A DNA stretch of 64,000 nucleotides from Planctomycetota bacterium (lineage in GTDB: Bacteria; Planctomycetota; UBA1135): assembly GCA_008501825.1 (NCBI GenBank), contig QQUA01000023.1:397994-461993 (forward strand), read 5' to 3'. Positions 17,765-40,021 of this stretch are shown piece after piece. Position 1 is the stretch's first letter; every line of letters begins with the position of its first letter. A model generated the notes under the pieces. The model did not search any database. It saw nothing but the letters and a program-made list of their open reading frames with translations, and was not told where the DNA came from. The translations under genes and the position numbers were made by a program.

Positions 17765-17790
17765 CGTTACTCTATCGACCCCGACCCGCC

Positions 17791-18087: not shown

Positions 18088-18547
18088 GACAGGGGTATTG
18101 ACCTGTTCAACGGACGGCCAACCTGGACCTCCTCGACAAGAAAACAGGCCTTAGAAGCTGTTATTTAGGGGTCGATCTATTTCAGAATTCCTAGATTTTC
18201 GCTATGATTTTCGATTTTTTTCCGTACTCCTTGGGTTGAGAAGGGACTTCATCCGCCCTGAGGATGAAAGCATAAGTCATTTAATAATAAAGCCTTAAGA
18301 AAATATTCCCGGTCGGGTTCCGCCGTGTTCCGGGTTTTTTCCGGCTGGAAGCCAAGAAAAGCCGGCTCGTAGTAATTTGCAAAAAGTAGACTTCAGCACA
18401 CAATGGCAGTGAAGCTTAACTGCTTTGCTGGTCGTCGAAGCCCGGTTCACCGCCTTTCAGGCAAACCTCAAGCTCCGGCGCGAAGCAGTCGAAAGCTTGT
18501 TGTTGAGCCACAACTAATAATTCCCCAAACCCGTTAGACACACGAAC

Positions 18548-20244: not shown

Positions 20245-21357
20245 ATGTCCCGTACCCTGCTTGCTGCTGCTGCAGTTCTGACTTTGTCGGCCTCCGTCGC
20301 CGCTCAAACTCAGGTTCCGGTCTCCAAGGCTGTCACTCCTAAGCACGCTGGCGTCTACAAGATGGCCACCGGTGAGCTCGTTCCCGCCACTCCTGGCGAG
20401 CGCAGCGGCCCCGTTGTCATCTTTAACGCCTCTGAGCTGACTAACTACTACAGCGTGCCTGGTCTCGACCAGGAGTGGCTGGATGAAGGTTCCCTGCTGG
20501 ACCGCAACCCCGGCAACGTTGAGCAAATGAACGGCATGGAGTTCGTTTACTGCTCGACCGAAGCCGACGCGACCCAGAACAGTGGTACCGTCACCTTCGC
20601 CTTCTACGATGACACCATCGTCTGCTCCGGACCCTCCAATGGCGGTAACTTCGCCTTGGGTGGCTACCTCTGCGCCTACGACATCGTCGGCCTGCCTCTC
20701 GGTGACGCCAACGGCGCCATCCAGTGCTGGATCGTCACTGTCGACCTGATGTGCGGATTTGAATGCCCGCCCGACCTGAGCTTCGATTGGGCCACGGACA
20801 ACGCCAACACCAAGCTGTTCGGCTGGTCCTTCATTCCTCGTAACGACAACACCGGCCCCTGGTTGACCAAGGGCGGTACCCAAGCCTCCGGCATCGACAA
20901 CAGCTTCGTCTGGTTCGACCAGTTCGGCGCCTTGGTCGGCTGCTTCTGGTTCGGTGGTACCCCGTTCGCCAACTTCGCCATGAAGATGTGGGGTAACGAC
21001 GCTGGTGTCCGTCACTACAACGCCGTCGCCCCCGGTGCTGCTGATGACTACTGCATGAGCATGCTCGACGCCGGCGCTGGCAACTACACCTTCGACATCA
21101 CGGACGCCGCTGGCACCTCCGTGGGTGGCTGGTTGGTCGCCTCCTTGGGCGCTGGTGAACTCCCCGTGGCTGGCGGCCACCTGATGATCGCCCTGCCCAA
21201 CCTGCCCCCGACGCCCGTCCCGGTCGCCGCTGGTGGCAGCACCTACGCCGTTCCGGCTGGTACCTTCTACCTGCAAGGCGTCGGCACCGCCAACGGTGGT
21301 CCGCCCTCCGCTGGTAACCTGCCGAACCACTGGTCCAACGGCATCCAGAAGAACTGA
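20245..21357 (+). CDS. Secreted Cys-rich protein, unknown family (paralogue B, 370 aa)
   Basis: Signal peptide MSRTLLAAAAVLTLSASVAA|QTQ. Same length as paralogue A and colinear with it. Differences cluster in the signal peptide and the last ~100 aa. Confidence 0.75.
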   Translation: MSRTLLAAAAVLTLSASVAAQTQVPVSKAVTPKHAGVYKMATGELVPATPGERSGPVVIFNASELTNYYSVPGLDQEWLDEGSLLDRNPGNVEQMNGMEFVYCSTEADATQNSGTVTFAFYDDTIVCSGPSNGGNFALGGYLCAYDIVGLPLGDANGAIQCWIVTVDLMCGFECPPDLSFDWATDNANTKLFGWSFIPRNDNTGPWLTKGGTQASGIDNSFVWFDQFGALVGCFWFGGTPFANFAMKMWGNDAGVRHYNAVAPGAADDYCMSMLDAGAGNYTFDITDAAGTSVGGWLVASLGAGELPVAGGHLMIALPNLPPTPVPVAAGGSTYAVPAGTFYLQGVGTANGGPPSAGNLPNHWSNGIQKN

Positions 21358-21420
21358 TCTCGGTTAGTTCCTCCGGGAGCTCGCTCCCGACTCGACACCC
21401 CACCTTCTCGGTGGGGTGTC
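20332..21420 (+). repeat. Tandem duplication unit, copy 2
   Basis: Colinear with 18635-19723. The sequence from the stop codon to the terminator (TGATCTCGGTTAGTTCCTCCGGGAGCTCGCTCCCGACTCGACACCCCACC) is identical in both copies. Confidence 0.85.
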
Positions 21421-21736: not shown

Positions 21737-21991
21737 ATGAGCGAACTCGAAAAACAAGTGACGGCTTTGGTCGCCGAGATCTTCGAAATGGAAGACAGCG
21801 AATTGTGGGAGAAGCGTTCCCAACACTTCGTCGAAGATCTCGGGATCGATTCCATGCTGGCCCTGGAAGTTTTGGCGAGCTTAGAGCGGACCTTTCGTAT
21901 TGAAATCCCGGAAGAAAGCGTGCTGGAGATGACTTCCCTGGATTCCACCATCGGCCTGGTAAAGGCCAAGGTGGAACAAGCCGCAGCCTAA
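21737..21991 (+). CDS. Acyl carrier protein (cluster-specific)
   Basis: 84 aa. DLGIDSMLALEVLASLE matches the ACP phosphopantetheine-attachment motif (D-S-L/M). Confidence 0.9.
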   Translation: MSELEKQVTALVAEIFEMEDSELWEKRSQHFVEDLGIDSMLALEVLASLERTFRIEIPEESVLEMTSLDSTIGLVKAKVEQAAA

Positions 21992-22003
21992 GCGAGATTC
22001 CCT

Positions 22004-22528
22004 TTGTACCTCGGCTTCGAGGAAGTCCGGCGCCTGTTACCCCAGGCGCCGCCGTTTCTGTTCATCGACCAGGTTCTTGAATTTGAACCTGGAGTACGCA
22101 TTCTCTGTAAGAAAAACGTAAGTGGTGGCGAACCCTTTTTCGCCGGCCACTTTCCGGAAGCTGCCGTGTTCCCCGGCGTGCTTTTAACCGAAGCAATGGC
22201 CCAAGCGGCCATCCTTTTGCTTCGACTAAGCGAAGATCCCGGGGCAGGCTCGGCTTCGGATCAGGGCGGTCCTCCCGAGAGGATGTTCATGATCGGCACG
22301 CAGCGAAATCGTTTTCTGCATCCAGTGTTTCCGGGCGATTCCTTGTTCTTGACCGTCGAGGCCGACAAGATCCTTCGCGAAGCGGCCATGGTCAGTGCAA
22401 AAGCCGAAGTCGATGACAAAGAAGTAGCCCGTTCCTCCATGACTCTTTCCGCTATGACTTGGGAACGCTTTCAAGCCATTCGCTTGCAAACCACCGCCGG
22501 CCAATCTTCAGCCGAGCATTCCTCATGA
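22004..22528 (+). CDS. FabZ/FabA-like 3-hydroxyacyl-ACP dehydratase (hot-dog fold)
   Basis: LLPQAPPFLFIDQV and FAGHFPEAAVFPGVLLTEAMAQAA match the FabZ consensus (LLPHRYPFLLVDRV ... GHFP..P.MPGVL..EAMAQ). TTG start at 22004. Confidence 0.85.
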   Translation: MYLGFEEVRRLLPQAPPFLFIDQVLEFEPGVRILCKKNVSGGEPFFAGHFPEAAVFPGVLLTEAMAQAAILLLRLSEDPGAGSASDQGGPPERMFMIGTQRNRFLHPVFPGDSLFLTVEADKILREAAMVSAKAEVDDKEVARSSMTLSAMTWERFQAIRLQTTAGQSSAEHSS

Positions 22529-23724
22529 GCGATCGACGCGTAGTGGTCACCGGTTTAGGCCCGGTCAGCCCTTTGGGTTGCGGCAAGGAAACCTTCTGGA
22601 ACGCCATCCTGGAAGGAAAGGACGGCTCTTGCAACGTTCAGCGTTTCGACACTTCGCAGTACAAGGTGCATCGCGCTTGCGAGGTTCAAGGCTACGTAGC
22701 TCCCAAGCTCCCGGGAGACCCGGGACCGGCTGCGGCCTTGGCCGTGGAAGCCGCCCGGTTGGCCTTGGAAGACGCGAATTTCGCCGAAATTCCGCAACAA
22801 AGCGGGGTGGTAATGGGAACCACCGGCGGCGAAATTCCCATTTTGGAGCACATTCACCGCCAGCAAGCGGAGCAAGGCGAAGACCAGGTTCCCCGGCGCC
22901 AATTTCCCAAATACCCCTGCCACACCATTACGGCTCAAGTCGCCCGATACTTCGGATTGAAAGGCCCGAACTTGATGGTGCCCACCGCTTGTGCCGCCGG
23001 CAACTATGCCTTTGCCATGGCCAAGGATTGGATTCAAGAAGGCCGTTGCGACGTGGTCTTAGCCGGCGGCGCCGATCCCCTATCGATCGTCTCCTTTACC
23101 GGCTTCAGCCGCCTGTTCGCCATTTCCCCCGACGTCCCGCGGCCCTTCGACAAGAACCGCAAAGGCATCCTTCCGGGAGAAGGCGCTGGCATCTTGGTTC
23201 TGGAAGCTTATGAATCAGCGCAAAAACGCGGCGCTCACATCTACGCCGAAATGGTGGGCTACGGTTTGAGCTGCGATGCTTATCACCCCACCATGCCTCA
23301 TCCGGAAAGCATGGGCGTTCGCCTGGCCATGGAACGAGCCTTGGCCGATGCCGGACTCACTCCCGCGGACGTGGATTACATCAGTGCCCACGGAACCGGC
23401 ACCCAGGCAAACGATAAGTTGGAAACTGCCGCGATTCGAGCGGTGATGCAAGACCAAGCGGAACGAGTTCCGGTTAGCTCGGTGAAGAGCATGATGGGCC
23501 ACACCATGGGTGCAGCTTCTGCTTTGGAAGGCATCGTATGTTCCATGGCCATTCAAAGCGACATGATCCCACCGACCATTCACTATGAAACTCCCGACCC
23601 CGATTGCGATTTGGATTACGTCCCCAACCAGGCCCGCCAGCACCCGGTGGGAGTCGCTTTGAACAACGCCTACGCTTTCGGCGGTAACAACAGTTGCGTG
23701 GTTTTTGCACGCCACCCACGATGA
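22525..23724 (+). CDS. Beta-ketoacyl-ACP synthase (FabF-like KS), catalytically intact
   Basis: ATG at 22525 overlaps the FabZ-like stop (ATGA). Start is MSDRRVVVTGLGPVSPLG. The Cys-His-His triad motifs are PTACAAGNYA, SAHGTGTQAND and KSMMGHTMGAAS. Confidence 0.9.
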   Translation: MSDRRVVVTGLGPVSPLGCGKETFWNAILEGKDGSCNVQRFDTSQYKVHRACEVQGYVAPKLPGDPGPAAALAVEAARLALEDANFAEIPQQSGVVMGTTGGEIPILEHIHRQQAEQGEDQVPRRQFPKYPCHTITAQVARYFGLKGPNLMVPTACAAGNYAFAMAKDWIQEGRCDVVLAGGADPLSIVSFTGFSRLFAISPDVPRPFDKNRKGILPGEGAGILVLEAYESAQKRGAHIYAEMVGYGLSCDAYHPTMPHPESMGVRLAMERALADAGLTPADVDYISAHGTGTQANDKLETAAIRAVMQDQAERVPVSSVKSMMGHTMGAASALEGIVCSMAIQSDMIPPTIHYETPDPDCDLDYVPNQARQHPVGVALNNAYAFGGNNSCVVFARHPR

Positions 23725-24881
23725 GCCAAAGCCACGCTCCGGTCGTCATTACGGCAACTTCCGCTTTGACCCCGTTCGGATGCGGCGGCGAGGATTTCTG
23801 GCTTGGAATCACTCAAGCCACCCATTCGCCCAGCGAAAAGGAAGTCCCTGCCCTGGACGTCAAGGCCTTGTTAGGCCCTCGTGGCTTGCGCCACTGGGAC
23901 CGAACCGCATTGTTACTTGGCTGCGCCGCCCGTTTGGCCATGAACGAAGGCGATTGGGAACAAGCCGGCTATCAACCGGATGAAGCCGGAGTGGTGTTCG
24001 GCTCCACTCATGGCTCCATCGAAGCCATCGTTTCCTTCGATAAAGAAGCCGTGGCGGAAGGTCCTCGCTACGTCAACCCGCAAGCTTTCGCCAATACCGT
24101 GATCAATGCACCGGCCGGACGCTTGGCCATGCATTTTGATCTTCCCGGTTTGAACACCACGGTTTCTTCAGGATTGAGCTCGGTCTTGGACGCGATCGGT
24201 TACGCCGAAGGCATGATTCGGCGGGGCCGCATTCAAGCCGTCTTGTGTGGCGGGGCTTTGGGATGGAGTCCGGCCATCGCCTGGGGTTATGAACGGAATC
24301 AACGCCTGGCCGTAAACGGTCAACCCTCGCCGCCGTTTGACGCCGCCGGCGAAGGCGGCTCGCTTCGAGAAGGCGCCGGCGTCTTGTTGTTGGAATGCCC
24401 GGAACGAGCCGCCGCCAGAAATCGCCAACCCCTGGCCAAAATCACCGGAAGCGGTGCCTGTTTCGAACCGGATGTTTCGTCCCCTTCCTTTTCCGGGCCG
24501 GAATCCGCCATTCGCTTCGCCTTGAAACAAGCCGGGCGCGAAGCCGATGAACTCGCCGCCGTCGTGAGCTGCGCCCGCGGCCTGGCGTTGACCGACGAAG
24601 TGGAATTCAAAGCCTTGGCCAATTTGGTTCCCGAAACCGTCCCGATCACCGCTCCGGCCGGAGCCTGCGGAGATTCCCTGGAAACCGTAGGCGCCCTGGC
24701 CATGATCACGGCAGTGGAAATGCTGACCCACGGCCAAATCCCCAAGATCGCCGGCGGCCGCCCTCGCCCCGGCCTGAATCTGGTTTTGGAACAAACGCAG
24801 AGTTTCGCCCCCGGTCCCGTTTTAGTCAGCAGTTGGGATCCGGAAGGCCACGGAGCCGCCGTGATCCTCGAACCGGGTTAA
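23721..24881 (+). CDS. KS-like protein lacking the catalytic triad (chain-length-factor-like partner)
   Basis: ATGA overlap at 23721. The fold is KS-like, but the active-site Cys position reads TTVSSGLSSV (Ser). The two His motifs are replaced (SCARGLA, PAGACGDSLETVG). Confidence 0.75.
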   Translation: MSQSHAPVVITATSALTPFGCGGEDFWLGITQATHSPSEKEVPALDVKALLGPRGLRHWDRTALLLGCAARLAMNEGDWEQAGYQPDEAGVVFGSTHGSIEAIVSFDKEAVAEGPRYVNPQAFANTVINAPAGRLAMHFDLPGLNTTVSSGLSSVLDAIGYAEGMIRRGRIQAVLCGGALGWSPAIAWGYERNQRLAVNGQPSPPFDAAGEGGSLREGAGVLLLECPERAAARNRQPLAKITGSGACFEPDVSSPSFSGPESAIRFALKQAGREADELAAVVSCARGLALTDEVEFKALANLVPETVPITAPAGACGDSLETVGALAMITAVEMLTHGQIPKIAGGRPRPGLNLVLEQTQSFAPGPVLVSSWDPEGHGAAVILEPG

Positions 24882-24930
24882 ACCGGTTTGAACCAGCCCG
24901 CCGTCCCTGCGGGCTTCCCCTTGTCCTTTC

Positions 24931-26403
24931 ATGATCTCGATCCCTAAAACCGAACTCCGCCGCCAATACGACGCCGTCATCATCGGCGCCGGCGTCGGAG
25001 GTCTGGTTTGTGCCGGTTTCCTGGTCCGCGCCGGCCTCAGCGTTTTGGTTTTGGATCAACACTATTTACCTGGGGGATGCTGCACCGCCTTTCCCAGGAA
25101 GGGAAAACGATATTTGTTCGACGCCGCGGTTCATCACATTGGAGCCTGCGGCAAGTTCGGAACGGTCGGCCGGATTGTGAAAGCCTTTGATCTAGGCATT
25201 CGCTTCCAACGACTGGATCCGATGGATCACCTAGTTTTCAGCGAGGACCGGGAATACACCATTCCGTCCGACTGGGAAGCCTGGAAAAATCAGCTTTGCC
25301 TGAGTTTCCCCGATCAGCGGGAAGGAATCGAACGCCTGTTTCGCGATCTACAACGGTTCCATCGCCAAATGTTGAAAGGAAGCGGACCTTTGTTGGACCA
25401 ATACCGGCGCACCACCTATCAAAGCTTCCTCCAGGACTACGTGGAAGACCCGGAATTGCTGCGCTGCTTGAGCGGCCAATGGGGTTATTTGGGCTTGCCC
25501 GCCGAACGCATCGCCGCAACCGGCATGGTGCAAATGCTGGTGAGTTATTGGCGCGAAGGTGCTTGGTATCCCCAAGGAAGTACGCAGAATTTTTCCAATG
25601 CTTTGGCTCATTCCCTGCTTGCCGCCGGCGGACATCTGCTGTTGAAACATCGAGTCGATGAAGTTTTGTTTGAAGAAAACGGCGACACAGCCTGCCACCG
25701 GGCCATCGGCATCCGCACCGAACACGGAGACGTCGTCCGCGCCAAAGTGGTGATCCACAACGGTGACGCCCGGCGCCTGTTCGAAGAATTGCTGCCGCAA
25801 CAAGCCGCGCCCAGAGAACACCAGGCTTGTCAAAAGCTGCAAGCGGCCACTCCCTATTTCGGTTTGTACATGGCTTTGGATGCCGGCTGCGATTTAAGCC
25901 GCCTCCCCCGCGGATTCTATTTCCCCAGTCGCTCGGAAATTTCCGACCTTGAAGGCGGTGCCAGCTTGGATTGGATGTATTTGTCCATCGGCACTCGATA
26001 CGACCCCGACATCGCCCCGCAGGGCGATCAGATCTTCTCCTCCACCGTAGCGGTCCGACCCGATTCGCCAAGCTTCGATGCCTGGCAACAGGACAAGAGC
26101 GGCATGGTGAAGGCAGTGATCGCTTATCTGGAAAACCGGGTGCCTGAATTGCAGCAGCACCTTCAGTTCGTGGACAGCGCCACTCCCAAAACCGTGGCCC
26201 GATTCACCATGTCCAAGGACGGCGCCGCTTACGGCTGGGCCGTCTCTCCCGATCAAGCCGCCGAGGATCGCCTCGGCCCCGAAACTTCCCTGGCCGGACT
26301 TTATCTCACCGGTCATTGGACCTCTCCCGGTCCAGGTGTTGCCGCCGTAGCCGCTTCCGGCTGGTCGGTGGCACATCGCATTCTCCAAAACCAAAACTCA
26401 TGA
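24931..26403 (+). CDS. FAD-dependent oxidoreductase, phytoene-desaturase (CrtI)-like
   Basis: Dinucleotide-binding start YDAVIIGAGVGGLVCAGFLVRAGLSVLVLDQHYLPGGC. It is ~490 aa, with a C-terminal GLYLTGHWTSPGPGV typical of CrtI/amine-oxidase-type flavoproteins. Confidence 0.8.
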   Translation: MISIPKTELRRQYDAVIIGAGVGGLVCAGFLVRAGLSVLVLDQHYLPGGCCTAFPRKGKRYLFDAAVHHIGACGKFGTVGRIVKAFDLGIRFQRLDPMDHLVFSEDREYTIPSDWEAWKNQLCLSFPDQREGIERLFRDLQRFHRQMLKGSGPLLDQYRRTTYQSFLQDYVEDPELLRCLSGQWGYLGLPAERIAATGMVQMLVSYWREGAWYPQGSTQNFSNALAHSLLAAGGHLLLKHRVDEVLFEENGDTACHRAIGIRTEHGDVVRAKVVIHNGDARRLFEELLPQQAAPREHQACQKLQAATPYFGLYMALDAGCDLSRLPRGFYFPSRSEISDLEGGASLDWMYLSIGTRYDPDIAPQGDQIFSSTVAVRPDSPSFDAWQQDKSGMVKAVIAYLENRVPELQQHLQFVDSATPKTVARFTMSKDGAAYGWAVSPDQAAEDRLGPETSLAGLYLTGHWTSPGPGVAAVAASGWSVAHRILQNQNS

Positions 26404-27833
26404 AGAAGAAACTCGTACTAATCAATCCCCATGTGGAGGGGCGCCGAGGCGAGGAAGACATTCGCGTCATCGTGCAGATGCCGTTGAACCTGGCCTACCT
26501 CGCCGCCCACACACCGAGCGAGGAATGGGACATCGACCTGATCGATGAAACCCTTGAAGACGCCCTCGATGAAAACGGCAAGCTGAAGTTCCAAGCCGAT
26601 TTGGTCGGCTTGACCGGATTGACCTACCAAGCCCCCAGGGCATACGAAATCGCCCTGGCCTGCCGCAAAGCCGGCGTCCCCACCGTGTTCGGTGGAACCC
26701 ACGCCATCACCTGCACCGAGGAAGCCACTCAGTACATGGATGCCGTGGTCATCGGCGAAGCGGAATTGATCTGGAAAGACCTGCTGGCGGATTTCCACAA
26801 GGGAGAGCTGAAGAAAATTTACGACGGCGGCTTCCCCGATTTATCCACCCTCAAAACCTGGCCCAATCGGGACTTGTTCAAGGACAAGTACGATTACAAA
26901 TATTCCTCCATCGTCACCACTAAAGGATGTCCTTGGCGCTGCGAATTTTGCAGCGTTCCGATGAGCCAGGGGAATGCTTATCGGGAAAGAGACGTCGACG
27001 ACGTGATCGACGAAATGGAAGCCACCGACTTCCGCGGCTTGATGTTCGCAGAAGATAATTTTTACGGCTACAAGCCCGATTCCAACGCCCGGGCGCGCAA
27101 ATTATTCCAGCGCATGAACGAACGCGGCGTGTTCAAGGATTGGTTCGGTTTCACCCAATTCAGCACCGGGCAAGATCCGGTGGCCTTGCGCGCCATGTCC
27201 GATTCGGGTTGTCTAGGATTCCTGATCGGCCTGGAATCCACCGATGAGCAGGTGCTGCGCAAAATGCGCAAAGGTTCGAATCTAAAGACCGGAATCGCCA
27301 ATTACACCAAGTGCATCGACAACATCCACGACAACGGCATGATCGTGTGGGCTTCGGTGATCTGGGGAGCGGACTTTCAAACCAAGGACGCTTTCTACTC
27401 CATGACCGATTTCATTCTTGAAAATTCGATCGACGTGCTTACCTACGGGATCCATTGCCCCTTCCCGGGTACGCCGCTGTTCAAGCGCATGGAGAAAGAA
27501 AACCGCCTGCTGCGGACCGACTTCCCCCAAGATTGGGAATACTACGACACCGCTCACGTCACCCACACGCTCAGCCACATGACCTTGGATGACTTCATTG
27601 AAGGTATGCAGTACCTTTATGACAACGTCTACGGCCAGGAAAACCTGAAGAAACGGTTCATCGAAACCTTGAAGCGCAACGGCAGTCGCCGCACCGCCAT
27701 GTTCGCTTACAAAGTCGGCAGCGATTGGGATCAGGTGTTCCGTCAAGTTCTGGACCGCTTGTACGCCTTGCGCGAATCCGGTCACTACGACCGCATCGTT
27801 CGGGACCGGGGCCTGCAGCCCGCTTCCGTCTGA
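26400..27833 (+). CDS. B12-binding-domain radical SAM enzyme (class B), paralogue 1
   Basis: ATG at 26400 overlaps the upstream stop (ATGA). The N-terminal region is B12-binding/Rossmann-like (KLVLINP...LNLAYLAAHTP...DLVGLTGLTYQAPRAYEIALACRKAGVPTVFGGTHA). The CxxxCxxC cluster motif CPWRCEFC lies at 26928-26951. Confidence 0.85.
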   Translation: MKKKLVLINPHVEGRRGEEDIRVIVQMPLNLAYLAAHTPSEEWDIDLIDETLEDALDENGKLKFQADLVGLTGLTYQAPRAYEIALACRKAGVPTVFGGTHAITCTEEATQYMDAVVIGEAELIWKDLLADFHKGELKKIYDGGFPDLSTLKTWPNRDLFKDKYDYKYSSIVTTKGCPWRCEFCSVPMSQGNAYRERDVDDVIDEMEATDFRGLMFAEDNFYGYKPDSNARARKLFQRMNERGVFKDWFGFTQFSTGQDPVALRAMSDSGCLGFLIGLESTDEQVLRKMRKGSNLKTGIANYTKCIDNIHDNGMIVWASVIWGADFQTKDAFYSMTDFILENSIDVLTYGIHCPFPGTPLFKRMEKENRLLRTDFPQDWEYYDTAHVTHTLSHMTLDDFIEGMQYLYDNVYGQENLKKRFIETLKRNGSRRTAMFAYKVGSDWDQVFRQVLDRLYALRESGHYDRIVRDRGLQPASV

Positions 27834-27878
27834 TCCAACGTCGTTCAACCACTCCCCCCCACAACGACTGTGCTGACC

Positions 27879-29312
27879 ATGAAAAAGAAGCTGGTGTTGA
27901 TCAATCCCTACACTCCCGGCCGGAAGGGGGAGGAGTCGATCCGGGTCATCGTGCAGATGCCCCTGAATTTGGCCTATCTGGCGGCCCACACGCCGCGGGA
28001 TCGCTGGGAAATTGACTTAATCGACGAAACGCTGGAAACCGCGCTGGATGAAAACGGCAAGTTGAAATTCGAAGCGAATCTGGTCGGCATCACCGCCCTG
28101 ACCTATCAGGCGTCCCGGGCTTATGAAATCGGTTTGGCGTGCAAGGCCGCCGGCGTGCCGTGCATCATGGGCGGCTCTCACGCCGTCACCAATACCGAGG
28201 AAGCGTTGCAATACGTGGACAGCGTGCTGGTCGGCGAAGCGGACGCCATCTGGCCGGAAATTCTGAAAGACGTCGAACTGAAAAAGTTGAAGCAGCTTTA
28301 TGACGGCGGTTTTCCCGATTTGGGATCGCTTTCGGCGTGGCCGGACCGGGATTTGTTCAAGGATAAATACGCTTATAAATACTCCTCCATCGTCACCACC
28401 AAGGGCTGCCCCTGGCGTTGCGAATTTTGCAGCGTCCCGATGGTGCAGGGAGGAAGTTATCGGGAACGGCCGGTGCATGACGTCCTCGATGAAATGGAAG
28501 GAACCAGCTTCCGCGGCTTGATGTTCGCCGAGGACAATTTCTACGGTTACAAGCCGGAATCCAATGCCAGAGCCCGCCAATTGTTCCGGGGCATGGTCGA
28601 GCGGGGCATCTACAAGGACTGGTTCGGCTTCACTCAATTCAGCACCGGCATGGATACCGACGCCCTGTCCGACATGAGCGACAGCGGCTGCCTGGGCTTT
28701 TTGATCGGCATGGAATCCACCGACGAGCAAGTGCTGCGGAAATTGCGCAAGGGTTCCAATCTCAAAACCGGAGTAGACAACTATCCGGTGGCGATCAAAA
28801 ACATCCACGATCACGGCATGATCGTTTGGGCGTCCATCATCTGGGGAGCGGATTTCCAGACCAAAGACGCGTTTCAAGCTATGGCGGATTACACGTGGGA
28901 GCAATCCCTGGACGTGGTCACTTTCGGAATCCACGCCCCGTTCCCGAACACCGCCCTATTCAAGCGCATGGTCAAGGAAAACCGCATGCTGCGGACCAAC
29001 TTCCCGGAAGATTGGTGGTATTACGACACCGCCCATATCACCCATACCTTCAGCCACATGACTTTGGAAGAATTCATCGAAGGTATGGAAGGGTTTTACC
29101 GGCAGGTTTACGGCCCGGAAAACATCAAAAAACGCTTTATTGAGACCTTGAAGCGCAACGGCAGCCGGCGGACGGCCATGTTCGCCTATAAAGTCAACAG
29201 CGACTGGGATCGAGTCTACCGCCAAGTCCTGGACCACTTGTACCGTTTGCGAGATTCCGGCTTGTACCACGACACCATGAAAGCAAGAGGCTTGGAGGTA
29301 GCCCGAGTTTGA
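27879..29312 (+). CDS. B12-binding-domain radical SAM enzyme (class B), paralogue 2
   Basis: ATG at 27879 (MKKKLVLINPYTPGRKGEE) aligns with the paralogue 1 start. CPWRCEFC lies at 28407-28430, the same residue position (177). The two are colinear and highly similar over their full length. Confidence 0.85.
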   Translation: MKKKLVLINPYTPGRKGEESIRVIVQMPLNLAYLAAHTPRDRWEIDLIDETLETALDENGKLKFEANLVGITALTYQASRAYEIGLACKAAGVPCIMGGSHAVTNTEEALQYVDSVLVGEADAIWPEILKDVELKKLKQLYDGGFPDLGSLSAWPDRDLFKDKYAYKYSSIVTTKGCPWRCEFCSVPMVQGGSYRERPVHDVLDEMEGTSFRGLMFAEDNFYGYKPESNARARQLFRGMVERGIYKDWFGFTQFSTGMDTDALSDMSDSGCLGFLIGMESTDEQVLRKLRKGSNLKTGVDNYPVAIKNIHDHGMIVWASIIWGADFQTKDAFQAMADYTWEQSLDVVTFGIHAPFPNTALFKRMVKENRMLRTNFPEDWWYYDTAHITHTFSHMTLEEFIEGMEGFYRQVYGPENIKKRFIETLKRNGSRRTAMFAYKVNSDWDRVYRQVLDHLYRLRDSGLYHDTMKARGLEVARV

Positions 29313-30490
29313 CCGCCAGGCCCCGGGTGCTGGTCACCGATATGGAATTGGCCTGTTCCCTAGGCAAGGGAGTGGACCAGGTCTGGCCGGCCCTGCTTGC
29401 CGGCCGGGAAGCCATCGGCCCGATCTCGAAATTTGATACTTCCGCCTTTCGCGTCGGTCTTTCCGCCGAAGCCAAAGAAATGGCTTGCATGACCGATTTC
29501 GAAGCCGCTCGATACAGCCTGGAACCGCTGCTTCAAAGGCAAGGCGCCTCTTCTTTTGCCGGCCCCCATTGCGGCTTGGTCCTGGGCATGCTCGGCGGCG
29601 ACTACTGGCCCATGGAGCGACGAATCTTGGCCAACCCGGAGGATCGAACCACCGGCATGACCCAAGAAATCTCCGAGATCTTTCCCCCTCACCAAGCCGC
29701 CGCGACCTTGGCTACGAAATTGGCAGTGGAAGGTCCGGTCACCACGGTGGCCGCCGCCTGCGCCTCCGGAAACCATGCCCTGAGTTTGGCCGGCGATTGG
29801 ATTCGGGAAGGTCGGGTGGATCGGGTCTTGGCCGGAGGCGTAAACGTGCTTTCGGTGCCTTGTTTCGCCCATTTCCATGGCATCCGGCTATTGGCCAAAG
29901 AACATTGCCGGCCCTTCGACAAAAATCGAGACGGTTTGGTGGCTGGCACCGGATCCGCTTGGATCCTGCTGGAATCGGAATCGGCGGCCAAAGCCCGAGG
30001 AGCGGAAGTCCTGGCTGAATTCGTGGGCTGGGGTCATTCCTGCGACGCTCATACAGTGACCGCCCCCCATCCGGAAGCCCGGGGCGCCATCGATTCGATC
30101 CAAGCTTGTTTGGCCGACGGTCGCATAGCCGCCGACCAAATCGATTACGTCAGCGCCCATGGCACCGGCACCGGCACCAATGACCGCACCGAAAGCAAAG
30201 CCCTTTATCACGTTTTCGGTTCCAGAGCAGCCACCCTGCCCATGAGTTCGATCAAATCCATGATCGGCCACACGATGGGGGCTTCCGCCGTGATCGAAGC
30301 CATTGCTTGCATCCAAGCCATCCGTACCGGTCAACTTCCTCCTACCGCCAACTTCGAACAAGCCGATCCGGAGTGCCCGGTGAACTGCCTGCCGAATCAA
30401 GCCGGGGAAGCCAAAGTTCGCTACGCCTTGAATGCCTCGTACGGTTTCGGCGGCAATAACTCCATAACCCTTTTCGGGCCCACTCCATGA
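29309..30490 (+). CDS. Beta-ketoacyl-ACP synthase (KS), catalytically intact, second copy
   Basis: The TTG start overlaps the rSAM stop. Triad motifs are AAACASGNHAL, SAHGTGTGTND and KSMIGHTMGASA. Confidence 0.85.
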   Translation: MTARPRVLVTDMELACSLGKGVDQVWPALLAGREAIGPISKFDTSAFRVGLSAEAKEMACMTDFEAARYSLEPLLQRQGASSFAGPHCGLVLGMLGGDYWPMERRILANPEDRTTGMTQEISEIFPPHQAAATLATKLAVEGPVTTVAAACASGNHALSLAGDWIREGRVDRVLAGGVNVLSVPCFAHFHGIRLLAKEHCRPFDKNRDGLVAGTGSAWILLESESAAKARGAEVLAEFVGWGHSCDAHTVTAPHPEARGAIDSIQACLADGRIAADQIDYVSAHGTGTGTNDRTESKALYHVFGSRAATLPMSSIKSMIGHTMGASAVIEAIACIQAIRTGQLPPTANFEQADPECPVNCLPNQAGEAKVRYALNASYGFGGNNSITLFGPTP

Positions 30491-31485
30491 CTTCCCCCCA
30501 GGAAGTTTGGATCACCGGCTGCGGCGCCATCAGCCCTTGGGGAAGTGCTTGGCAGGATTTGCCCACCTTCGGCTCGAAAAGAGATCTACTGAAGCCGGAA
30601 GCGGGAAAGTTGCTGCGGATGGCCGAATACGACTCCAAGGGAATCTTAAATCGGCGAGGCCTTCGCTACTGCGGCTCCGGCACTTTGGCCCTGGCGTGCA
30701 GCAGCGTGTTGGCGGTTGAAGACGCGGATTGGCAGGATCAGGAAGGATTGGCCTTTTTTGCCGGCACCGGATTCGGCAACGTTTCGCCGATGTTCGACTT
30801 TCTCTACCGAGTCCTGAACGAAGGGCCGGCCCAAGTATTGCCGATGGCCTCTTTCGACGCGGCTTTGAACTCCCAGGCCAACTACGTCTCGGTATTTTTG
30901 GCGGCCAGACGCTTGAATCGTTGCTTCGTCGGCATGACCGCCGGTTTGGAAGCCGTCATCGATGCCATTCGCTGGATTCGAGCTGGATGGGCCCGTGGCG
31001 CGGTCGTGGGCGGAGTCGACACCATCAACGTGGATTTAGAAAGCTGGCTTCCCTTCCAGCCCGAAGAAAGCCGCAATGGAGTGAGTGAAGGCGCCTATTC
31101 CATTTTTCTGGAGTCGGCTGAATCCGCCCGCCAACGAGGCCGGACCGCGATCGCGGAAATTCGGGAGAGTGGCCTAGGCTTTCACCCGCCGGCCGGCCCG
31201 CCGCCGGATTTTTCGTTTTGGTTTTCAAAATTCGCCTCGGGTGAACCGTCGACCTACCGTTGGCTTTACTGTGGAAACGATTTGAATCAGGATTCCGAAG
31301 CTCAGTTTCTGCCTTTGACCCGCCTTTACGGCAACGCTCTCGGCGCCCGTGGTTTGGCAGGGGTACAAGTCGCCTGCCTGGAAGCAAGAGAAGGCGCTAC
31401 CCCAATTCAAGTATTCGATTCCCACCGCCAAGGCAATTACGCCGCGGTGACCGTGACTCCTCCGACCCCCAACTCGAAGTCATGA
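30487..31485 (+). CDS. Short KS-like protein without catalytic triad (second CLF-like partner)
   Basis: ATGA overlap at 30487. Length is 332 aa versus 393 aa for its KS neighbour. The Cys position reads FVGMTAGLEA (no Cys), and no HGTGT or GHT motifs are present. Confidence 0.7.
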   Translation: MTSPQEVWITGCGAISPWGSAWQDLPTFGSKRDLLKPEAGKLLRMAEYDSKGILNRRGLRYCGSGTLALACSSVLAVEDADWQDQEGLAFFAGTGFGNVSPMFDFLYRVLNEGPAQVLPMASFDAALNSQANYVSVFLAARRLNRCFVGMTAGLEAVIDAIRWIRAGWARGAVVGGVDTINVDLESWLPFQPEESRNGVSEGAYSIFLESAESARQRGRTAIAEIRESGLGFHPPAGPPPDFSFWFSKFASGEPSTYRWLYCGNDLNQDSEAQFLPLTRLYGNALGARGLAGVQVACLEAREGATPIQVFDSHRQGNYAAVTVTPPTPNSKS

Positions 31486-32237
31486 CCGCTTCTTCTTCCT
31501 GGCAAGATCAATGTGTTTTGGTTACCGGCGGCAGCCGCGGCATCGGCCGGGCCATCGTCGAACACCTGGTTCAGAAAGGCGCAAAAGTGGCCTTTACTTA
31601 TCAATCCCGTGCCGATGCCGCCGAAGCCTTGATCGCCGATTTGCAAACTGCACCGGGCCAAGCCATCGCCTTTGCTTGCGATAGCCGCGACTTCGACGCG
31701 GTCAAAGAAACCGTGAACCAAGCCAGAGAACAACTGGGCGGCCTCCACGGATTGGTGAACAACGCCGGCATCACTCGGGATCAAATTCTGATGATGATGA
31801 AAGCGGAACAGTGGCATGAAGTGATCGATACCAACTTGACCGGGGTTTTTCATTTCTGCAAAGCGGTGATCTTCTCCATGTTGAAGCAAAGACAGGGAAG
31901 AATCGTCAACGTCGGCTCGGTTTCCGGTTTGATTGGAAATCCAGGCCAGGTGAATTACTCCGCCGCCAAAGCCGGCATCATCGGCCTGAGTAAAGCCCTG
32001 GCCAAGGAAACCGCCAGCCGCGGCATCACCGTCAATGTGGTCGCCCCCGGCTTTATCGAAACCGACATGGTTGGGGACATCCAGGAGAAAACTCGAGAAA
32101 CGGTCCTCCAAATGATCCCGGTGGGCCGCTTTGGAGAAGCCTCGGAGGTCGCCTCGCTGGTGACCTATCTCCTTGGCCAAGAAGCAGCTTACATCACCGG
32201 CCAGGTATTTACCATCGACGGCGGCCTGGCAATTTAA
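31482..32237 (+). CDS. fabG: 3-oxoacyl-ACP reductase (SDR, FabG-like)
   Basis: ATG at 31482 overlaps the upstream stop (ATGA). Motifs are VLVTGGSRGIGRAIV (TGxxxGxG), NNAGI and YSAAKAG (YxxxK). Confidence 0.9.
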   Translation: MTASSSWQDQCVLVTGGSRGIGRAIVEHLVQKGAKVAFTYQSRADAAEALIADLQTAPGQAIAFACDSRDFDAVKETVNQAREQLGGLHGLVNNAGITRDQILMMMKAEQWHEVIDTNLTGVFHFCKAVIFSMLKQRQGRIVNVGSVSGLIGNPGQVNYSAAKAGIIGLSKALAKETASRGITVNVVAPGFIETDMVGDIQEKTRETVLQMIPVGRFGEASEVASLVTYLLGQEAAYITGQVFTIDGGLAI

Positions 32238-32412: not shown

Positions 32413-33354
32413 ATGAAAACCATCCTCAAAATCAGCCTGGCCCTGTTGTTCACCGGGCCAGGATTCGCCCAAGTCGACCTTGGGCCCTTAAATCTTCCGA
32501 CCGAATTTACCCCACTTCCCTTCTATGAAGGATTCGAAGCGGCCGCCGGCCAAGTTCCGAACTACATGGCCTTGACCGAGTTGGACGCCGGTTCCTTGAC
32601 CCACGACAACGATGCATGGTGCAACATCGGCAATCGGGCGGCATGCTTGAACCCGCCGGTGGGCTCCTTCGCTTTGGAAATGGGATTGAATCCCAACTAC
32701 ACCAGCAACATCCATTATGTGCGCAACGCCATGGTGCTGGGCTTGGATGGCAGCCAATACAACGGTTCCTTCCGGATGGGTTTCATGGCCTACGACGGCG
32801 GAGAAGAAACTCATACCGTAGATGGTGTTTGGCTCAGCAACGACGGGGTGGATTGGTACCAGGCTTATGGTCCGTGGACCTCGCTCAGTGCGGTGTGGAC
32901 CGAATTGGAAGGGGTCGACTTGGCCGCTGCCGGAGTCAACCTACGCTCCCAGTTTTATTTGGCATTCGTGCAGGAAGACAATTACCCCTATTTCGACATC
33001 GACGGGGTTGGCATCGATGAAATCACCATCCCGGTACGCCCGAGCATCGAGAGTACACCTTTGACCGCCGGCGGCTACGGAGTCCTGACCTTGGATACGG
33101 ACATCCCCTATTCCACCGCCTACTTCATTGTCTCCAAAGTCGGCCTCGGCCAGATTCAACTCGGAAACGTGCTGTTTGATCTCGCCGGTCCGATTCACCG
33201 CATCGCCGCCCGCCCCACTGACAGCCAAGGCAACACCATGCTGGTTTATCTGGTGCCGGCCGATCTGTCCGGCAACACCCTTTACATCCAAGCGGCTATT
33301 GGAGATTGGCAGTACAGCCTTACCACCAAAGTACTTGCAGAGCCGGTTCAATAG
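32413..33354 (+). CDS. Secreted protein, MAM/jelly-roll-like N-domain + C-terminal beta module (paralogue 1 of 3)
   Basis: ATG at 32413 with signal peptide MKTILKISLALLFTGPGFA|QVDLGPLNLP. The family shares conserved blocks (FYEGFE, WCNIGNRAACLNP, SFALEMGL, DGVWLSNDGVDWYQ, YLAFVQEDNYPYFDIDGVGIDEITI). The ORF-track start at 32173 lies inside fabG. Confidence 0.7.
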   Translation: MKTILKISLALLFTGPGFAQVDLGPLNLPTEFTPLPFYEGFEAAAGQVPNYMALTELDAGSLTHDNDAWCNIGNRAACLNPPVGSFALEMGLNPNYTSNIHYVRNAMVLGLDGSQYNGSFRMGFMAYDGGEETHTVDGVWLSNDGVDWYQAYGPWTSLSAVWTELEGVDLAAAGVNLRSQFYLAFVQEDNYPYFDIDGVGIDEITIPVRPSIESTPLTAGGYGVLTLDTDIPYSTAYFIVSKVGLGQIQLGNVLFDLAGPIHRIAARPTDSQGNTMLVYLVPADLSGNTLYIQAAIGDWQYSLTTKVLAEPVQ

Positions 33355-33362
33355 CACCCTCA

Positions 33363-33400
33363 TCACCCCCGTTCTTTTTTCGGAGCGGGGGTGAATTTTT
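33363..33400 (+). terminator. Rho-independent terminator
   Basis: Stem TCACCCCCG / CGGGGGTGA (33363-33371 / 33386-33394), followed by ATTTTT. Confidence 0.6.
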
Positions 33401-33515
33401 ACCCAAAATTTCAAAATTACATCCGTATGGCGGTTAGGCTTGATTGTGCCTCGAAGCGCGATTCCAACCTCGAGGCATGGGCAATCCCCAGCCCAAACCC
33501 ATCGAATCCCCAAAA

Positions 33516-34457
33516 ATGAAAAAAATTCTGCCCCTTTTGGTGGCTTTGGCCGCCATTTCCGCCCCCGTTTCGGCTCAGACAGACCTTGGTCCCCTGAATT
33601 TACCTGCCGGGACCACCACCCTGCCGCTGTTCGAGGGCTTTGAAGTCGCCGCCGGTGTGATTCCGCCTTACATGGCGGTCACCGAGCTGGACGTCGCCAC
33701 CTTGCTCCCTGACCCGGAAGCCTGGTGCAACATTGGGCAAAAGGCTCCTTGCCTGAACCCTTTCAACGGCAGTTACGCCCTGGAAATGGGCTTGATTCCC
33801 GGCTCCACCAACTACCACGACGTTCGCAACGCCCTGGTCCTCGGCATCGACGGCACCGGTTACACCGGTTCCACCTCGATGGCCTTCCAGGTTTTTGACG
33901 AAGGCGAGGAAAGCGACGTAGTGGACGGCGTGTGGATCAGTAACGACGGCGTTGGCTGGTACCAGGTTTACGGCGATTGGACTTCGCTTCCGCAAGCTTG
34001 GACCTACGTCACCGGCGTGGACTTGGCCAGCACCCCGGTCGACATTACCGGCCAGTTCTATCTGGCTTTCGTGCAGGAAGACAACTTCCCCTACCTGGAC
34101 TTGGACGGCGTCGGCATTGACGACATCGCCATTCCCGGCCGCGCCCTGTTGACCTCCACCGCTTTGGCCGGTGGTGCCTACGCCACGGTCACCATCGACT
34201 CCACCACCGCCGGGGGTACCGCAACCTTGCTGGCCTCCTTCACCGGCTCTGGACCGAGCTTCTACGGCAACGTTCAGGTCGACTTGAGCCAACCGATCTT
34301 CACCATCGTCACCATTCCTACCGACGTCAACGGAGATGCGGTGCTCTCTTCCATCGTTCCGGCGAACCTGAGCGGGCGCACCATTTACCTGCAAGGCATC
34401 GTTTCGGACGGCATCAACAGCAACGTCACCACGCTGTTGGTCGATACCATTCTTTAA
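33516..34457 (+). CDS. Secreted MAM-like protein (paralogue 2 of 3)
   Basis: ATG at 33516 with signal peptide MKKILPLLVALAAISAPVSA|QTDLGPLNLP. It has the same conserved blocks as 32413..33354. Confidence 0.7.
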   Translation: MKKILPLLVALAAISAPVSAQTDLGPLNLPAGTTTLPLFEGFEVAAGVIPPYMAVTELDVATLLPDPEAWCNIGQKAPCLNPFNGSYALEMGLIPGSTNYHDVRNALVLGIDGTGYTGSTSMAFQVFDEGEESDVVDGVWISNDGVGWYQVYGDWTSLPQAWTYVTGVDLASTPVDITGQFYLAFVQEDNFPYLDLDGVGIDDIAIPGRALLTSTALAGGAYATVTIDSTTAGGTATLLASFTGSGPSFYGNVQVDLSQPIFTIVTIPTDVNGDAVLSSIVPANLSGRTIYLQGIVSDGINSNVTTLLVDTIL

Positions 34458-34474
34458 CGGAATTCCTTCCGCGT

Positions 34475-34505
34475 CGCCCCGTTCGCCTTGGCGGACGGGG
34501 CATTT
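34475..34505 (+). terminator. Rho-independent terminator
   Basis: Stem GCCCCGTTCGC / GCGGACGGGGC (one G-U pair) spans 34475-34500, followed by ATTTT. It overlaps the ORF-track start at 34488, which supports the ATG at 34593 as the real start. Confidence 0.6.
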
Positions 34506-34592
34506 TCCGTTTCCGGTCCAGTCGGCCGGCGAAGATCTCGGGATATACTGAATCGGCCCCTTCTCGCTTGGCTTTGCAAAGCTTCCCACACC

Positions 34593-38144: not shown

Positions 38145-38154
38145 GGGAAAATGG

Positions 38155-39034: not shown

Positions 39035-40021
39035 CTAAAACTGCAACAATACCGCGGCCCAGTGAAAACCGGCGCCGAAGGCGGTGAGCAAAACCTTGCT
39101 TCCCGCCGGCACCATGCCTTTGTTGCGAGCCTCCCAAAGGGCCAGGGGAACCGAGGCCGATCCGGTGTTGCCGTAATCCTGGACGTTGATGTAGACCTTC
39201 TCCAGAGGAAAGCCCAGCGATTTGGCCACGGAATGCAAAATGCGAATATTGGCTTGGTGGGGCACGAACAAATCGATGTCGTCGGTGCTCCAGCCAACCT
39301 GATTCAACACCTCGTGGGCGGCGGCGCTCATGCGACTGACGGCTTCCTTGAACACCTCGCGGCCGTTCATCACCACTCGATTGTGGACGTTGTCCTCGGC
39401 CACTTCTTTGGAGAAAGGAACCCGGGTGCCGCCGATCTCCTTACCCAAAATGTCGGCTTTGCTGCCGTCGGTTCCAGTGGTGACGGCTAAGACCTCCACC
39501 AAATCCTGGCCCTGATCGATCACCATGGCTCCGGCACCGTCGCCGAACAGGACGCAAGTGTTGCGGTCCTGCCAACTCATGATTTTGGAAATGGCTTCCA
39601 CTCCCAAAACCAAAATGGGTCCGCCACGAACCGCGACCCGGGAACAAGCCAGATCCACCGCTTGCAGAAAGCCAGCGCAGCCGCTTCCGGCCAAATCGTA
39701 AGCCGGAACTTCGCCGGCGCCGATTTGATGTTGGATGTAGGCGGCGGTATCCGGGTTGTAAACCTCGGGCGTATCGGTGGCGACGATGATTTCCCGCAAC
39801 TCCCCCGGTTGCACCGCCGCTTCTTCCATGGCCAAGCGAGCCGCCGCCATGCCGAGGTCCACGGTGGTTTCCTTTTCCCCGGCAAACCGCCGCTGGTGGA
39901 TTCCGGTTCGTTCTACGATCCACTCATCGGAGGTGTCCACGTACCGGGTCCAATCTTCGTTGGTCATGACCCGTTCCGGAACGTAAGCACCCAGCCCCCG
40001 AAATCCGATTTTTTGCTGCAC
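39035..40021 (-). CDS. fabH: 3-oxoacyl-ACP synthase III
   Basis: GLGAYVPERVMTNEDW...TSDEWIVERTGIHQRRFA, active-site GSGCAGF, VPHQANIRI, and GNTGSASVPLAL. Confidence 0.9.
   Translation of the reverse strand: MQQKIGFRGLGAYVPERVMTNEDWTRYVDTSDEWIVERTGIHQRRFAGEKETTVDLGMAAARLAMEEAAVQPGELREIIVATDTPEVYNPDTAAYIQHQIGAGEVPAYDLAGSGCAGFLQAVDLACSRVAVRGGPILVLGVEAISKIMSWQDRNTCVLFGDGAGAMVIDQGQDLVEVLAVTTGTDGSKADILGKEIGGTRVPFSKEVAEDNVHNRVVMNGREVFKEAVSRMSAAAHEVLNQVGWSTDDIDLFVPHQANIRILHSVAKSLGFPLEKVYINVQDYGNTGSASVPLALWEARNKGMVPAGSKVLLTAFGAGFHWAAVLLQF

Follow-up and report, generated by a model that had tools for sequence, protein, structure and literature searches.

A ten-gene operon in a Planctomycetota-labelled genome that probably joins two gene sets so far considered anammox-specific

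The 64,000-nucleotide stretch of DNA analysed here (hereafter, the window) covers positions 397,994 to 461,993 of contig QQUA01000023.1 (forward strand; assembly GCA_008501825.1), from a genome labelled Planctomycetota bacterium. At 21737-32237 its plus strand contains ten consecutive genes of the type II fatty-acid synthase (FAS-II) kind and of associated enzyme families: an acyl carrier protein (ACP), a FabZ-like dehydratase, an active ketosynthase (KS1) with an inactive, chain-length-factor-like partner (CLF1), a flavoenzyme, two cobalamin-dependent radical S-adenosylmethionine enzymes (rSAM1 and rSAM2), a second active ketosynthase (KS2) with a short inactive partner (CLF2), and a FabG-type reductase. 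This order, listed in a first-pass annotation made from the letters of the window, was confirmed, the open reading frames (ORFs) lying at the coordinates of Table 1 and the domains being recognized by Pfam and NCBIfam models. The six start/stop overlaps of 4 nt that it had noted (at 22525, 23721, 26400, 29309, 30487 and 31482) are likewise real and read ATGA or TTGA, the genes of FabZ and KS2 starting with TTG. The start of rSAM2 is more likely the ATG at 27879 than the GTG at 27870, as the ATG was called independently on a second assembly and an exact look-up of the protein with the GTG start gave no match. That second, independent Logan assembly (SRR7585904; a 22-kb contig, L001) contains the cluster with its flanks and encodes proteins 99-100% identical to those of the window; because it reproduces the whole cluster, an assembly artefact is ruled out. 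The exact copy of rSAM1 in NCBI lies on a 479,528-bp contig of a metagenome-assembled genome (MAG) labelled "Planctomycetota bacterium"; the same contig encodes KAA3605165.1 and KAA3605225.1.

Table 1. Coordinates (window numbering), strand and basis of assignment of the operon genes and of the neighbouring features considered with them
Feature	Position	Strand	Basis and remarks
Terminator-like hairpin (intrinsic type)	21394..21420	+	11-bp stem and T-run; ends the upstream gene; 5' boundary of the operon transcription unit
ACP, amxACP (kuste3603) type	21737..21991	+	Pfam PP-binding; GIDSM Ser attachment motif
FabZ/FabA-fold 3-hydroxyacyl-ACP dehydratase, amxFabZ (kuste3604) type	22004..22528	+	NF000582, 119 bits (cut-off 113)
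KS1, active ketosynthase, putative amxFabF2 (kuste3605) orthologue	22525..23724	+	fabF model, 408 bits
CLF1, inactive ketosynthase, chain-length-factor-like, putative amxFabFmut (kuste3606) orthologue	23721..24881	+	Weak ketosynthase match
FAD flavoenzyme, CrtI/carotenoid-isomerase family, kuste3607 ("PDH") positional orthologue	24931..26403	+	Pfam Amino_oxidase, NAD_binding_8
rSAM1, cobalamin-dependent radical SAM enzyme	26400..27833	+	Pfam B12-binding, Radical_SAM, DUF4070
rSAM2, second cobalamin-dependent radical SAM enzyme	27879..29312 (alternative GTG start 27870)	+	B12-binding and radical SAM domains
KS2, active ketosynthase, groups with kuste2804 type	29309..30490	+	Cys-His-His; ketosynthase tree
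CLF2, short inactive ketosynthase (332 aa), groups with kuste2805 type	30487..31485	+	fabF model weakly, 44 bits
FabG, 3-oxoacyl-ACP reductase	31482..32237	+	TIGR01830, 312 bits, above cut-off; YSAAK and TGGSRGIG NAD(P)-binding motifs
Two paralogous GNAT-like proteins (398 and 429 aa)	35551-36747, 36948-38237	-	Acetyltransf_9 weakly matched
FabH (KAS III), possible accessory starter enzyme	39035..40021	-	Pfam; apart from the other fab genes in the window

Pfam found no enoyl reductase among the ten operon proteins, nor a thioesterase, acyltransferase, glycosyltransferase, exporter or aryl-starter enzyme. Because no Rfam family reached its gathering score in a scan of the whole window, no cobalamin or other riboswitch is predicted upstream of the operon. 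A sigma-70 scan, which gave one internal match against a shuffled mean of 3.9, was uninformative on the operon promoter.

The first six genes are identical in order to kuste3603-3608 of the anaerobic ammonium-oxidizing (anammox) bacterium Kuenenia as published (PMC4790861, Table 2). This set, known as Cluster I, is generally held to be central to the biosynthesis of ladderane lipids (PMC10139942; bioRxiv 10.64898/2026.05.19.726425). The first-pass annotation had pointed to candidate ladderane clusters proposed for anammox bacteria (Rattray 2009), and the parallel is borne out in a tighter form than was suggested, since genes 1-6 appear to be collinear orthologues of kuste3603-3608. The best matches of the ACP in the PDB are both amxACP (7auf, 85 bits; 7qv0_D, 82 bits), canonical ACPs reaching 36 bits at most; its identity to the Cluster I ACPs of anammox bacteria is 45-55%, and it scores below the cut-off of all AcpP equivalog models in NCBIfam. 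FabZ likewise matches amxFabZ best (7qv0_A and 8ayb, 133 bits, compared with about 90 bits for canonical FabZ). It keeps the catalytic His and has Ile, as in the anammox enzyme, at tunnel position 69, where canonical FabZ has Gly. Positions 96 and 115, occupied in canonical FabZ by the basic ACP-docking residues Lys/Arg and in amxFabZ by Ser/Thr and Val/Ile, respectively, are both Leu. Judged by these residues, Ile69 together with non-basic positions 96 and 115, the operon FabZ carries the hallmarks of amxFabZ, an enzyme that acts only on amxACP-bound substrates and prefers chains of up to C8 (PMC10139942).

The same relationship is seen for the first ketosynthase pair. The best PDB match of KS1 is amxFabF2 (9s5h_B, 480 bits), and that of CLF1 is its partner amxFabFmut (9s5h_C, 192 bits; the next match has 89 bits). 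In a five-sequence alignment, the Cys-His-His triad, the Lys and the gate Phe are intact in KS1 and KS2, whereas the triad positions of CLF1 are Leu/Cys/Asp, those of its anammox counterpart being Val(Thr)/Asn(Cys)/Glu; alignment with amxFabFmut shows that CLF1 retains the tunnel residues Phe135 and Val139. KS1 and CLF1, therefore, appear to reproduce the anammox pattern of an intact-triad ketosynthase with a triad-less partner keeping Phe135/Val139. The anammox pair must form a heterodimer to be active; in that state it decarboxylates malonyl-ACP, produces acetoacetyl-ACP and favours C6-C8 probes (bioRxiv 10.64898/2026.05.19.726425). In neighbour-joining trees, KS1 grouped with the kuste3605 type in 98 of 100 bootstrap replicates and CLF1 with the kuste3606 type in 88 of 100.

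The flavoenzyme at the fifth position shares 37-43% identity with the protein encoded at the corresponding place in anammox loci and 52-57% with that in loci of clade B, the clade into which the radical SAM enzymes of the window fall. Its best PDB match is CrtI (4dgk, 64 bits). Membership of the carotenoid desaturases or isomerases was rejected, as the protein scores below the cut-off of every carotenoid model (carot_isom, 148 vs 587 bits; crtI_fam, 126 vs 238 bits). The Kuenenia counterpart, kuste3607, showed no CrtI activity in vivo (PMC4790861).

Both radical SAM enzymes contain the CX3CX2C motif in the form CPWRCEFC as well as PF04055, and the B12-binding domain PF02310 scores 38.7 bits in rSAM1 and 30.4 bits, just below the cut-off of 32.1, in rSAM2. 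By these features both enzymes are predicted to be cobalamin-dependent radical SAM enzymes of class B. rSAM1 is 56-58% identical to proteins of Kuenenia, Brocadia and Scalindua, 72-75% identical to those of Acidobacteria 13_1_40CM (P0013), Bin8 and a contig from the ENA, and 74-75% identical to those of the Acidobacteriota MFD06085 and Spirochaetales loci. rSAM2 is a close paralogue (74% identity to rSAM1), and in a neighbour-joining tree the two form the sister clade of the kuste3608 type. The NCBIfam model TIGR04072 (rSAM_ladder_B12) was tried as a test of membership and rejected: rSAM1 and rSAM2 score 61.5 and 58.2 bits, respectively, against a cut-off of 360 bits, and the anammox enzymes examined (P0051 and P0117) also fall below it (87 bits for the kuste3608-type protein of Kuenenia and 78 bits for the kuste2803-type protein). 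The model describes a different enzyme. TIGR04072 is described as "lipid biosynthesis B12-binding/radical SAM protein", and no curated model covers the radical SAM family of the operon.

The second half of the operon corresponds to another anammox gene set. A locus of a member of the Brocadiaceae (L081), which has the published kuste2802-2805 layout of holo-ACP synthase (ACPS), radical SAM enzyme and two ketosynthases, in the anammox set a FabF and a non-canonical FabB, encodes an active ketosynthase 38% identical to KS2 (305 bits). With this pair, KS2 grouped with the kuste2804 type (97/100) and CLF2 with the kuste2805 type (98/100). A phylogeny of the ketosynthase pairs against anammox sequences, proposed in the first-pass annotation, thus places both pairs with their anammox orthologues (bootstraps 88-98), and the link to anammox bacteria extends to this second part of the operon. 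CLF2 has no Pfam match, its best PDB match is amxFabFmut with 70 bits, and its triad positions are Met/Cys/Asn in the five-sequence alignment and Met/Phe/Asn in an alignment of 51 sequences. With 332 aa, compared with 412 aa in the anammox kuste2802-2805 counterpart, it is shorter by about 80 residues. From these relationships, module 1 (ACP, FabZ, KS1, CLF1, the flavoenzyme and rSAM1) would correspond to Cluster I, and module 2 (rSAM2, KS2 and CLF2, followed by FabG) has what appears to be the layout of kuste2803-2805.

How the two modules are arranged elsewhere was seen in a set of loci obtained by scanning one genome per GTDB species with an alignment of the radical SAM enzymes, the ten window proteins being mapped by tblastn on the 79 best loci. 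The order ACP-FabZ-KS-CLF-flavoenzyme-rSAM is the same in 58 loci of this set whose radical SAM enzyme belongs to the Brocadiales clade. In the classical anammox genomes among the 79 loci, KS2, CLF2 and FabG do not occur within 10 kb of Cluster I. The ten-gene order of the window is identical in a Spirochaetales-labelled MAG (L004), and in two loci labelled as delta proteobacterium (L020 and L025) both modules are included in one array, the core being followed by further radical SAM enzymes, KS/CLF genes and FabG; a third delta-labelled locus (L079), which ends at a contig edge, has the same downstream part. The modules are adjacent and divergent in a basal Brocadiia-like MAG (L058) and about 12 kb apart on one contig of a Blastocatellia MAG. 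In every clade-B locus, as well as in the delta-labelled ones, a FabG gene comes after the cluster, and most clade-B relatives have a seven-gene form composed of the core and FabG. Considering the orthology together with the general mechanism proposed below, we estimate at about 75% the probability that the operon is a self-contained fusion of two gene sets so far held to be anammox-specific.

This distribution bears directly on the status of Cluster I, which has been described as "encountered exclusively" in ladderane producers (PMC10139942) and as "unique to ladderane-producing bacteria" (bioRxiv 10.64898/2026.05.19.726425). Collinear clusters in MAGs labelled Acidobacteriota, Spirochaetales, Blastocatellia and delta proteobacterium contradict these statements and indicate that, as far as gene content and order can tell, Cluster I is not exclusive to anammox bacteria. 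In the literature searched, there was no report of Cluster I with its diagnostic residues outside anammox bacteria, nor of both anammox modules fused elsewhere; loosely defined antiSMASH "ladderane" calls in other phyla, made without analysis at the gene level, have been published (PMC9902471). The novelty that the first-pass annotation attached to the locus is divided: the gene content belongs to a family that is known and partly characterized biochemically, and what is new is the host, the joining of both modules in one operon and the additional FabG.

The orthology to Cluster I and to the kuste2804/2805 types supports the earlier proposal of a dedicated pathway for an unusual modified lipid. 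Its "long-chain" part, however, is unsupported, because FabZ and CLF1 retain the residues to which the C6-C8 preference of their anammox counterparts has been linked. The product is most likely a short acyl chain that is assembled on the operon's ACP, undergoes radical SAM and flavin chemistry, and is then extended. In such a pathway, the dedicated ACP would carry malonate, which KS1/CLF1 would decarboxylate to prime the synthesis before elongating the chain, as shown for the anammox orthologues. FabG would reduce the β-keto group, and the Ile-gated FabZ would accept for dehydration only short chains of approximately C6-C8, and these only when carried by the ACP of the operon. Because the operon has no enoyl reductase, the intermediate presumably either keeps its unsaturation or depends on an enzyme of the host for reduction. 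The CrtI/CRTISO-like flavoenzyme might then desaturate, isomerize or saturate it, changing the double-bond pattern, and the cobalamin-dependent radical SAM enzymes might form a carbon-carbon bond on an unactivated carbon, through either ring closure or methylation. KS2/CLF2, with its shortened CLF, would accept the modified intermediate and extend it, and the chain would probably enter the general lipid assembly of the cell, given that neither a thioesterase nor an acyltransferase is encoded in the operon. The end product would be a specialized membrane fatty acid.

Several points weigh against this interpretation. rSAM2 groups with rSAM1 in clade B (its identity to the L081 enzyme is 47%) and is not an orthologue of kuste2803, and Pfam detects no holo-ACP synthase among the ten operon proteins, while kuste2802 is one. 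The Leu at FabZ position 96 is non-basic but is not the Ser/Thr of amxFabZ. The short-chain preference is deduced here from a few conserved residues, and structure alone does not explain that preference even in amxFabZ, according to the authors who described it (PMC10139942). Expression of kuste3603-3608 in Escherichia coli left the fatty acids unchanged (PMC4790861), and no member of the cluster family has a known product. All trees were built by neighbour joining only, with 100 bootstrap replicates for the ketosynthase tree, and the assessment of the host covers the window and short flanks.

The nature of the carbon-carbon bond is where the other readings of the product diverge. Most characterized cobalamin-dependent radical SAM enzymes are methylases, and rSAM1 and rSAM2 might be ordinary class B C-methyltransferases, the product then being methyl-branched and possibly unsaturated fatty acids without rings. 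The best sub-threshold matches of the two enzymes do include PhpK, HpnR and the Mcr glutamine C-methyltransferase, and the wide spread of the cluster over phyla is easier to reconcile with a generic lipid modification than with one of a unique kind. The NCBIfam family scores, however, do not separate methylases from ring-forming enzymes: those for PhpK, HpnR, HpnJ and BchE all lie at 55-85 bits against cut-offs of 360-650, and the ring-forming or rearranging enzymes score similarly (HpnJ, 78-80 bits; BchE, 55 bits), the closest solved structure being AprD4, with 37 bits. Simple methylation, moreover, would not require an ACP and a dehydratase reserved for the pathway together with two KS/CLF pairs. 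We consider simple methylation unlikely.

True ladderane lipids, with concatenated cyclobutane rings, would be the most consequential product, since these lipids would in that case also occur outside anammox bacteria. Each of the six Cluster I genes has an orthologue or positional homologue in the operon, and KS and CLF of the kuste2804/2805 type accompany them, all apparently intact; the enzyme of the kuste3608 type is regarded as a putative "ladderane synthase" (PMC13598231). On the other hand, ladderanes have been reported only from anammox bacteria in the literature searched, and no experiment has so far connected Cluster I with ladderane formation (PMC10139942; PMC4790861). All compared window proteins are 26-58% identical to their anammox counterparts and form a separate clade, and the carriers of the cluster include soil Acidobacteriota and high-GC MAGs. 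In the Acidobacteriota and the high-GC carrier groups, we know of no anammoxosome-like organelle, which also counts against ladderanes. It, therefore, seems quite unlikely that the operon makes ladderanes, and we would attach the same low expectation to the broader idea that non-anammox bacteria, namely this host and the bacteria behind the Acidobacteriota-, Spirochaetales-, Blastocatellia- and delta proteobacterium/Myxococcota-labelled MAGs, make lipids that are of the ladderane type or biosynthetically close to it.

The operon might also be a highly reducing type II polyketide synthase (PKS) for a conjugated polyene of the aryl-polyene or ishigamide kind, in which the flavoenzyme and the radical SAM enzymes would be tailoring enzymes. 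A set of KS/CLF, ketoreductase and dehydratase without enoyl reductase fits this idea, as do the second-best structural match of KS1, which is Iga11 (320 bits), and precomputed ApeI-like and ApeP-like Pfam matches on the FabZ homologue. We nevertheless regard a polyene as improbable: every component is markedly nearer to the anammox proteins than to polyene systems, FabZ passes the FabZ cut-off of NF000582, both CLFs lack the active-site Gln of the CLFs of aromatic type II PKSs, and the operon contains no aryl-starter enzyme, thioesterase, glycosyl- or acyltransferase, or exporter.

As for the origin of the operon, the host has no NCBI label below Planctomycetota, and the relatives of FabH do not place it below the phylum. 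The closest FabH proteins are encoded on the same contigs as related clusters (the ENA contig, 67%; Bin8, 65%), followed by those of Gemmatimonadota and Acidobacteriota, and the top 120 FabH matches contain no protein of the Brocadiales. The GC content of the cluster (57.7%) equals that of the window (57.2%), compared with 37-41% in anammox loci, 44-54% in basal Brocadiia and 50-72% in the other carriers; with this agreement, and with no tRNA or integration signature found, a recent horizontal transfer into the host is not indicated. The host, a high-GC genome labelled Planctomycetota, thus does not look like an anammox bacterium by its sequence features. The source is a MAG, and labels of MAGs can be wrong, but an origin of the operon in an anammox or other foreign genome through mis-assembly or mis-binning is very improbable given its GC content, its position inside a 479,528-bp contig and the independent 22-kb Logan contig spanning the cluster and both flanks, and because several contigs carrying related clusters under non-anammox labels are 0.38-1.8 Mb long (381 kb, 884 kb and 1.8 Mb).

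The window proteins fall into one clade (97/100 for KS1) together with their counterparts from the Planctomycetota Bin8, two Acidobacteriota MAGs, a Spirochaetales MAG and the ENA contig; the cluster is also carried by Blastocatellia and "delta proteobacterium" MAGs. Accessions of carriers other than the source are SHNF01 (Bin8), CAVTHF01, CAZYOL01, DASRDY01, CAWESA01, CAWFFN01 and DAIQJH01. No axenic isolate is represented among the 79 best loci. In the rooted neighbour-joining tree of ketosynthases, the anammox sequences are nested, clade B branching off first, then the delta-labelled sequences, and then Blastocatellia together with anammox (support 99-100). The CLF tree is less clear, with support of 25-68. 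From the nested position of the anammox sequences in the ketosynthase tree, therefore, the pathway may not have arisen in the anammox lineage but have come to it by inheritance or acquisition.

Ladderane biosynthesis has been an open question since 2002, and to our knowledge no ladderane producer is genetically tractable and no reconstitution has worked. The main argument for Cluster I as the ladderane pathway has been its conservation and exclusivity in anammox bacteria, and the present data take exclusivity out of this argument. Two possibilities follow: ladderane-like chemistry occurs more widely than assumed, or the product of Cluster I is a different one and the genes specific to ladderanes are located elsewhere. 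The former case would matter because ladderanes serve as biomarkers of anammox bacteria. The divergent orthologue set described here should also be of use, as its subtraction from anammox genomes should reveal the genes that are truly anammox-only. The fusion of the 3603-3608 and 2803-2805 sets in several lineages is gene-neighbourhood evidence that the two belong to one pathway, and a compact ten-gene unit with its own ketoreductase and an ordinary GC content may suit heterologous expression.

Some genes around the operon might be connected with it. The first-pass annotation had described the fabH gene as a separate housekeeping copy; the gene is real according to Pfam, but its housekeeping role is not established, because fabH recurs within 0.1-6 kb of a related cluster in four loci from two phyla (L002, L003, L083 and L084). 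On the basis of this recurrent proximity only, FabH may be a dedicated starter enzyme rather than a housekeeping copy. A homologue of the two GNAT-like proteins (34-35% identity) is encoded directly upstream of KS-CLF-rSAM in the Bin8 locus (L005, 5371-6561), which hints at an accessory role of the pair in module 2. No flanking gene had a lipid-related Pfam match. Three paralogous secreted proteins of about 313-326 aa without a Pfam match are encoded directly after FabG (32413-35534, +); no plus-strand terminator-like site was predicted between the FabG stop and the first of them in a scan to 32700, and they may be co-transcribed with the operon. Directly upstream of the operon lie two tandem paralogues (18548-19660 and 20245-21357, +) encoding 370-aa proteins with signal peptides and no Pfam match, which are the same at 355 of 371 aligned positions, stop included, with a DNA identity of 94.6%.

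In the related loci, the ten-gene operon of L004 is flanked by two more B12 radical SAM genes, a myo-inositol-1-phosphate synthase and a PaaK-like AMP ligase (1118-4578, -; 16718-19253, +); a "phenylacetyl-CoA ligase" has been noted in synteny with anammox lipid clusters (Rattray et al., PMC2649909). In the closest relative of the cluster, on the ENA contig (L082; 94,612 bp), FabG is followed at 12470-17394 by a membrane-fusion protein and an RND/MMPL-like transporter, which could be an exporter of the product.

Elsewhere in the window, a 1073-aa Ser/Thr kinase (40023-43244, +) has a C-terminal region that weakly matches PvdO, GldK/PorK and EgtB models, and two tandem 433-aa paralogues (46008-48702, +) show weak similarity to myxosortase-dependent metalloproteases. 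A CRISPR array at 48785-52290 consists of 58 exact copies of the 28-nt repeat GGGTCAGCCCCGCATGCGCGGGGAACAG with a period of 61; two of its spacers are repeated, one being present in three copies and the other in two. The array accounts for the spurious ORFs listed at 49347-50240 and 50723-51828, and a complete type I-E cas operon, from cas1 to cas3 (52751-60908, -), adjoins it.

Comparison with other known systems places the operon closest to the two anammox sets. Aromatic type II PKSs were rejected as a model because CLF1 and CLF2 have Leu and Met, respectively, instead of Gln and because no cyclase domain was found by Pfam. The Amc system for cispentacin is a precedent for the formation of a carbocycle on an ACP by FAS-II-like parts, and we know of no radical SAM enzymes in it. 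FabZ matches AmcE with 104 bits (cut-off 140) and KS1 matches AmcF with 247 bits (cut-off 325); all Amc scores are below the cut-off, and the other Amc components are absent from the operon. The ishigamide (Iga11/Iga12) and aryl-polyene PKSs share with the operon a ketosynthase with an inactive partner, for which a heterodimer is predicted here, a dedicated ACP, a ketoreductase, a FabZ-like dehydratase and the lack of an enoyl reductase. They are more distant, however (320 vs 480 bits), and differ from the operon in that it contains cobalamin-dependent radical SAM enzymes and a CrtI-like flavoenzyme and has no aryl-starter or export genes. FAS-like clusters with radical SAM enzymes and phytoene-desaturase homologues were already known outside anammox bacteria (Rattray 2009, PMC2649909), and those of Desulfotalea psychrophila and Geobacter resemble the operon in combining FAS-II paralogues, a radical SAM enzyme and a CrtI-like flavoenzyme (PMC2649909), but they are syntenic with the large anammox cluster kuste33xx (Kuste3342/3343 with DP1853/DP1855) and not with Cluster I.

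With the kuste2802-2805 set, module 2 shares the succession of a radical SAM enzyme, an active ketosynthase and an inactive ketosynthase. The anammox set differs by its holo-ACP synthase, and the operon by an rSAM2 that is not of the kuste2803 type, by the shorter CLF2 and by the FabG that follows directly. Cluster I itself has the same six genes in the same order and orientation and provides the best PDB matches for four of the proteins, while its proteins are 32-58% identical to those of the operon across the six genes, the operon sequences forming a separate clade; and in the operon, FabG and a second rSAM-KS-CLF module are fused to this six-gene core.

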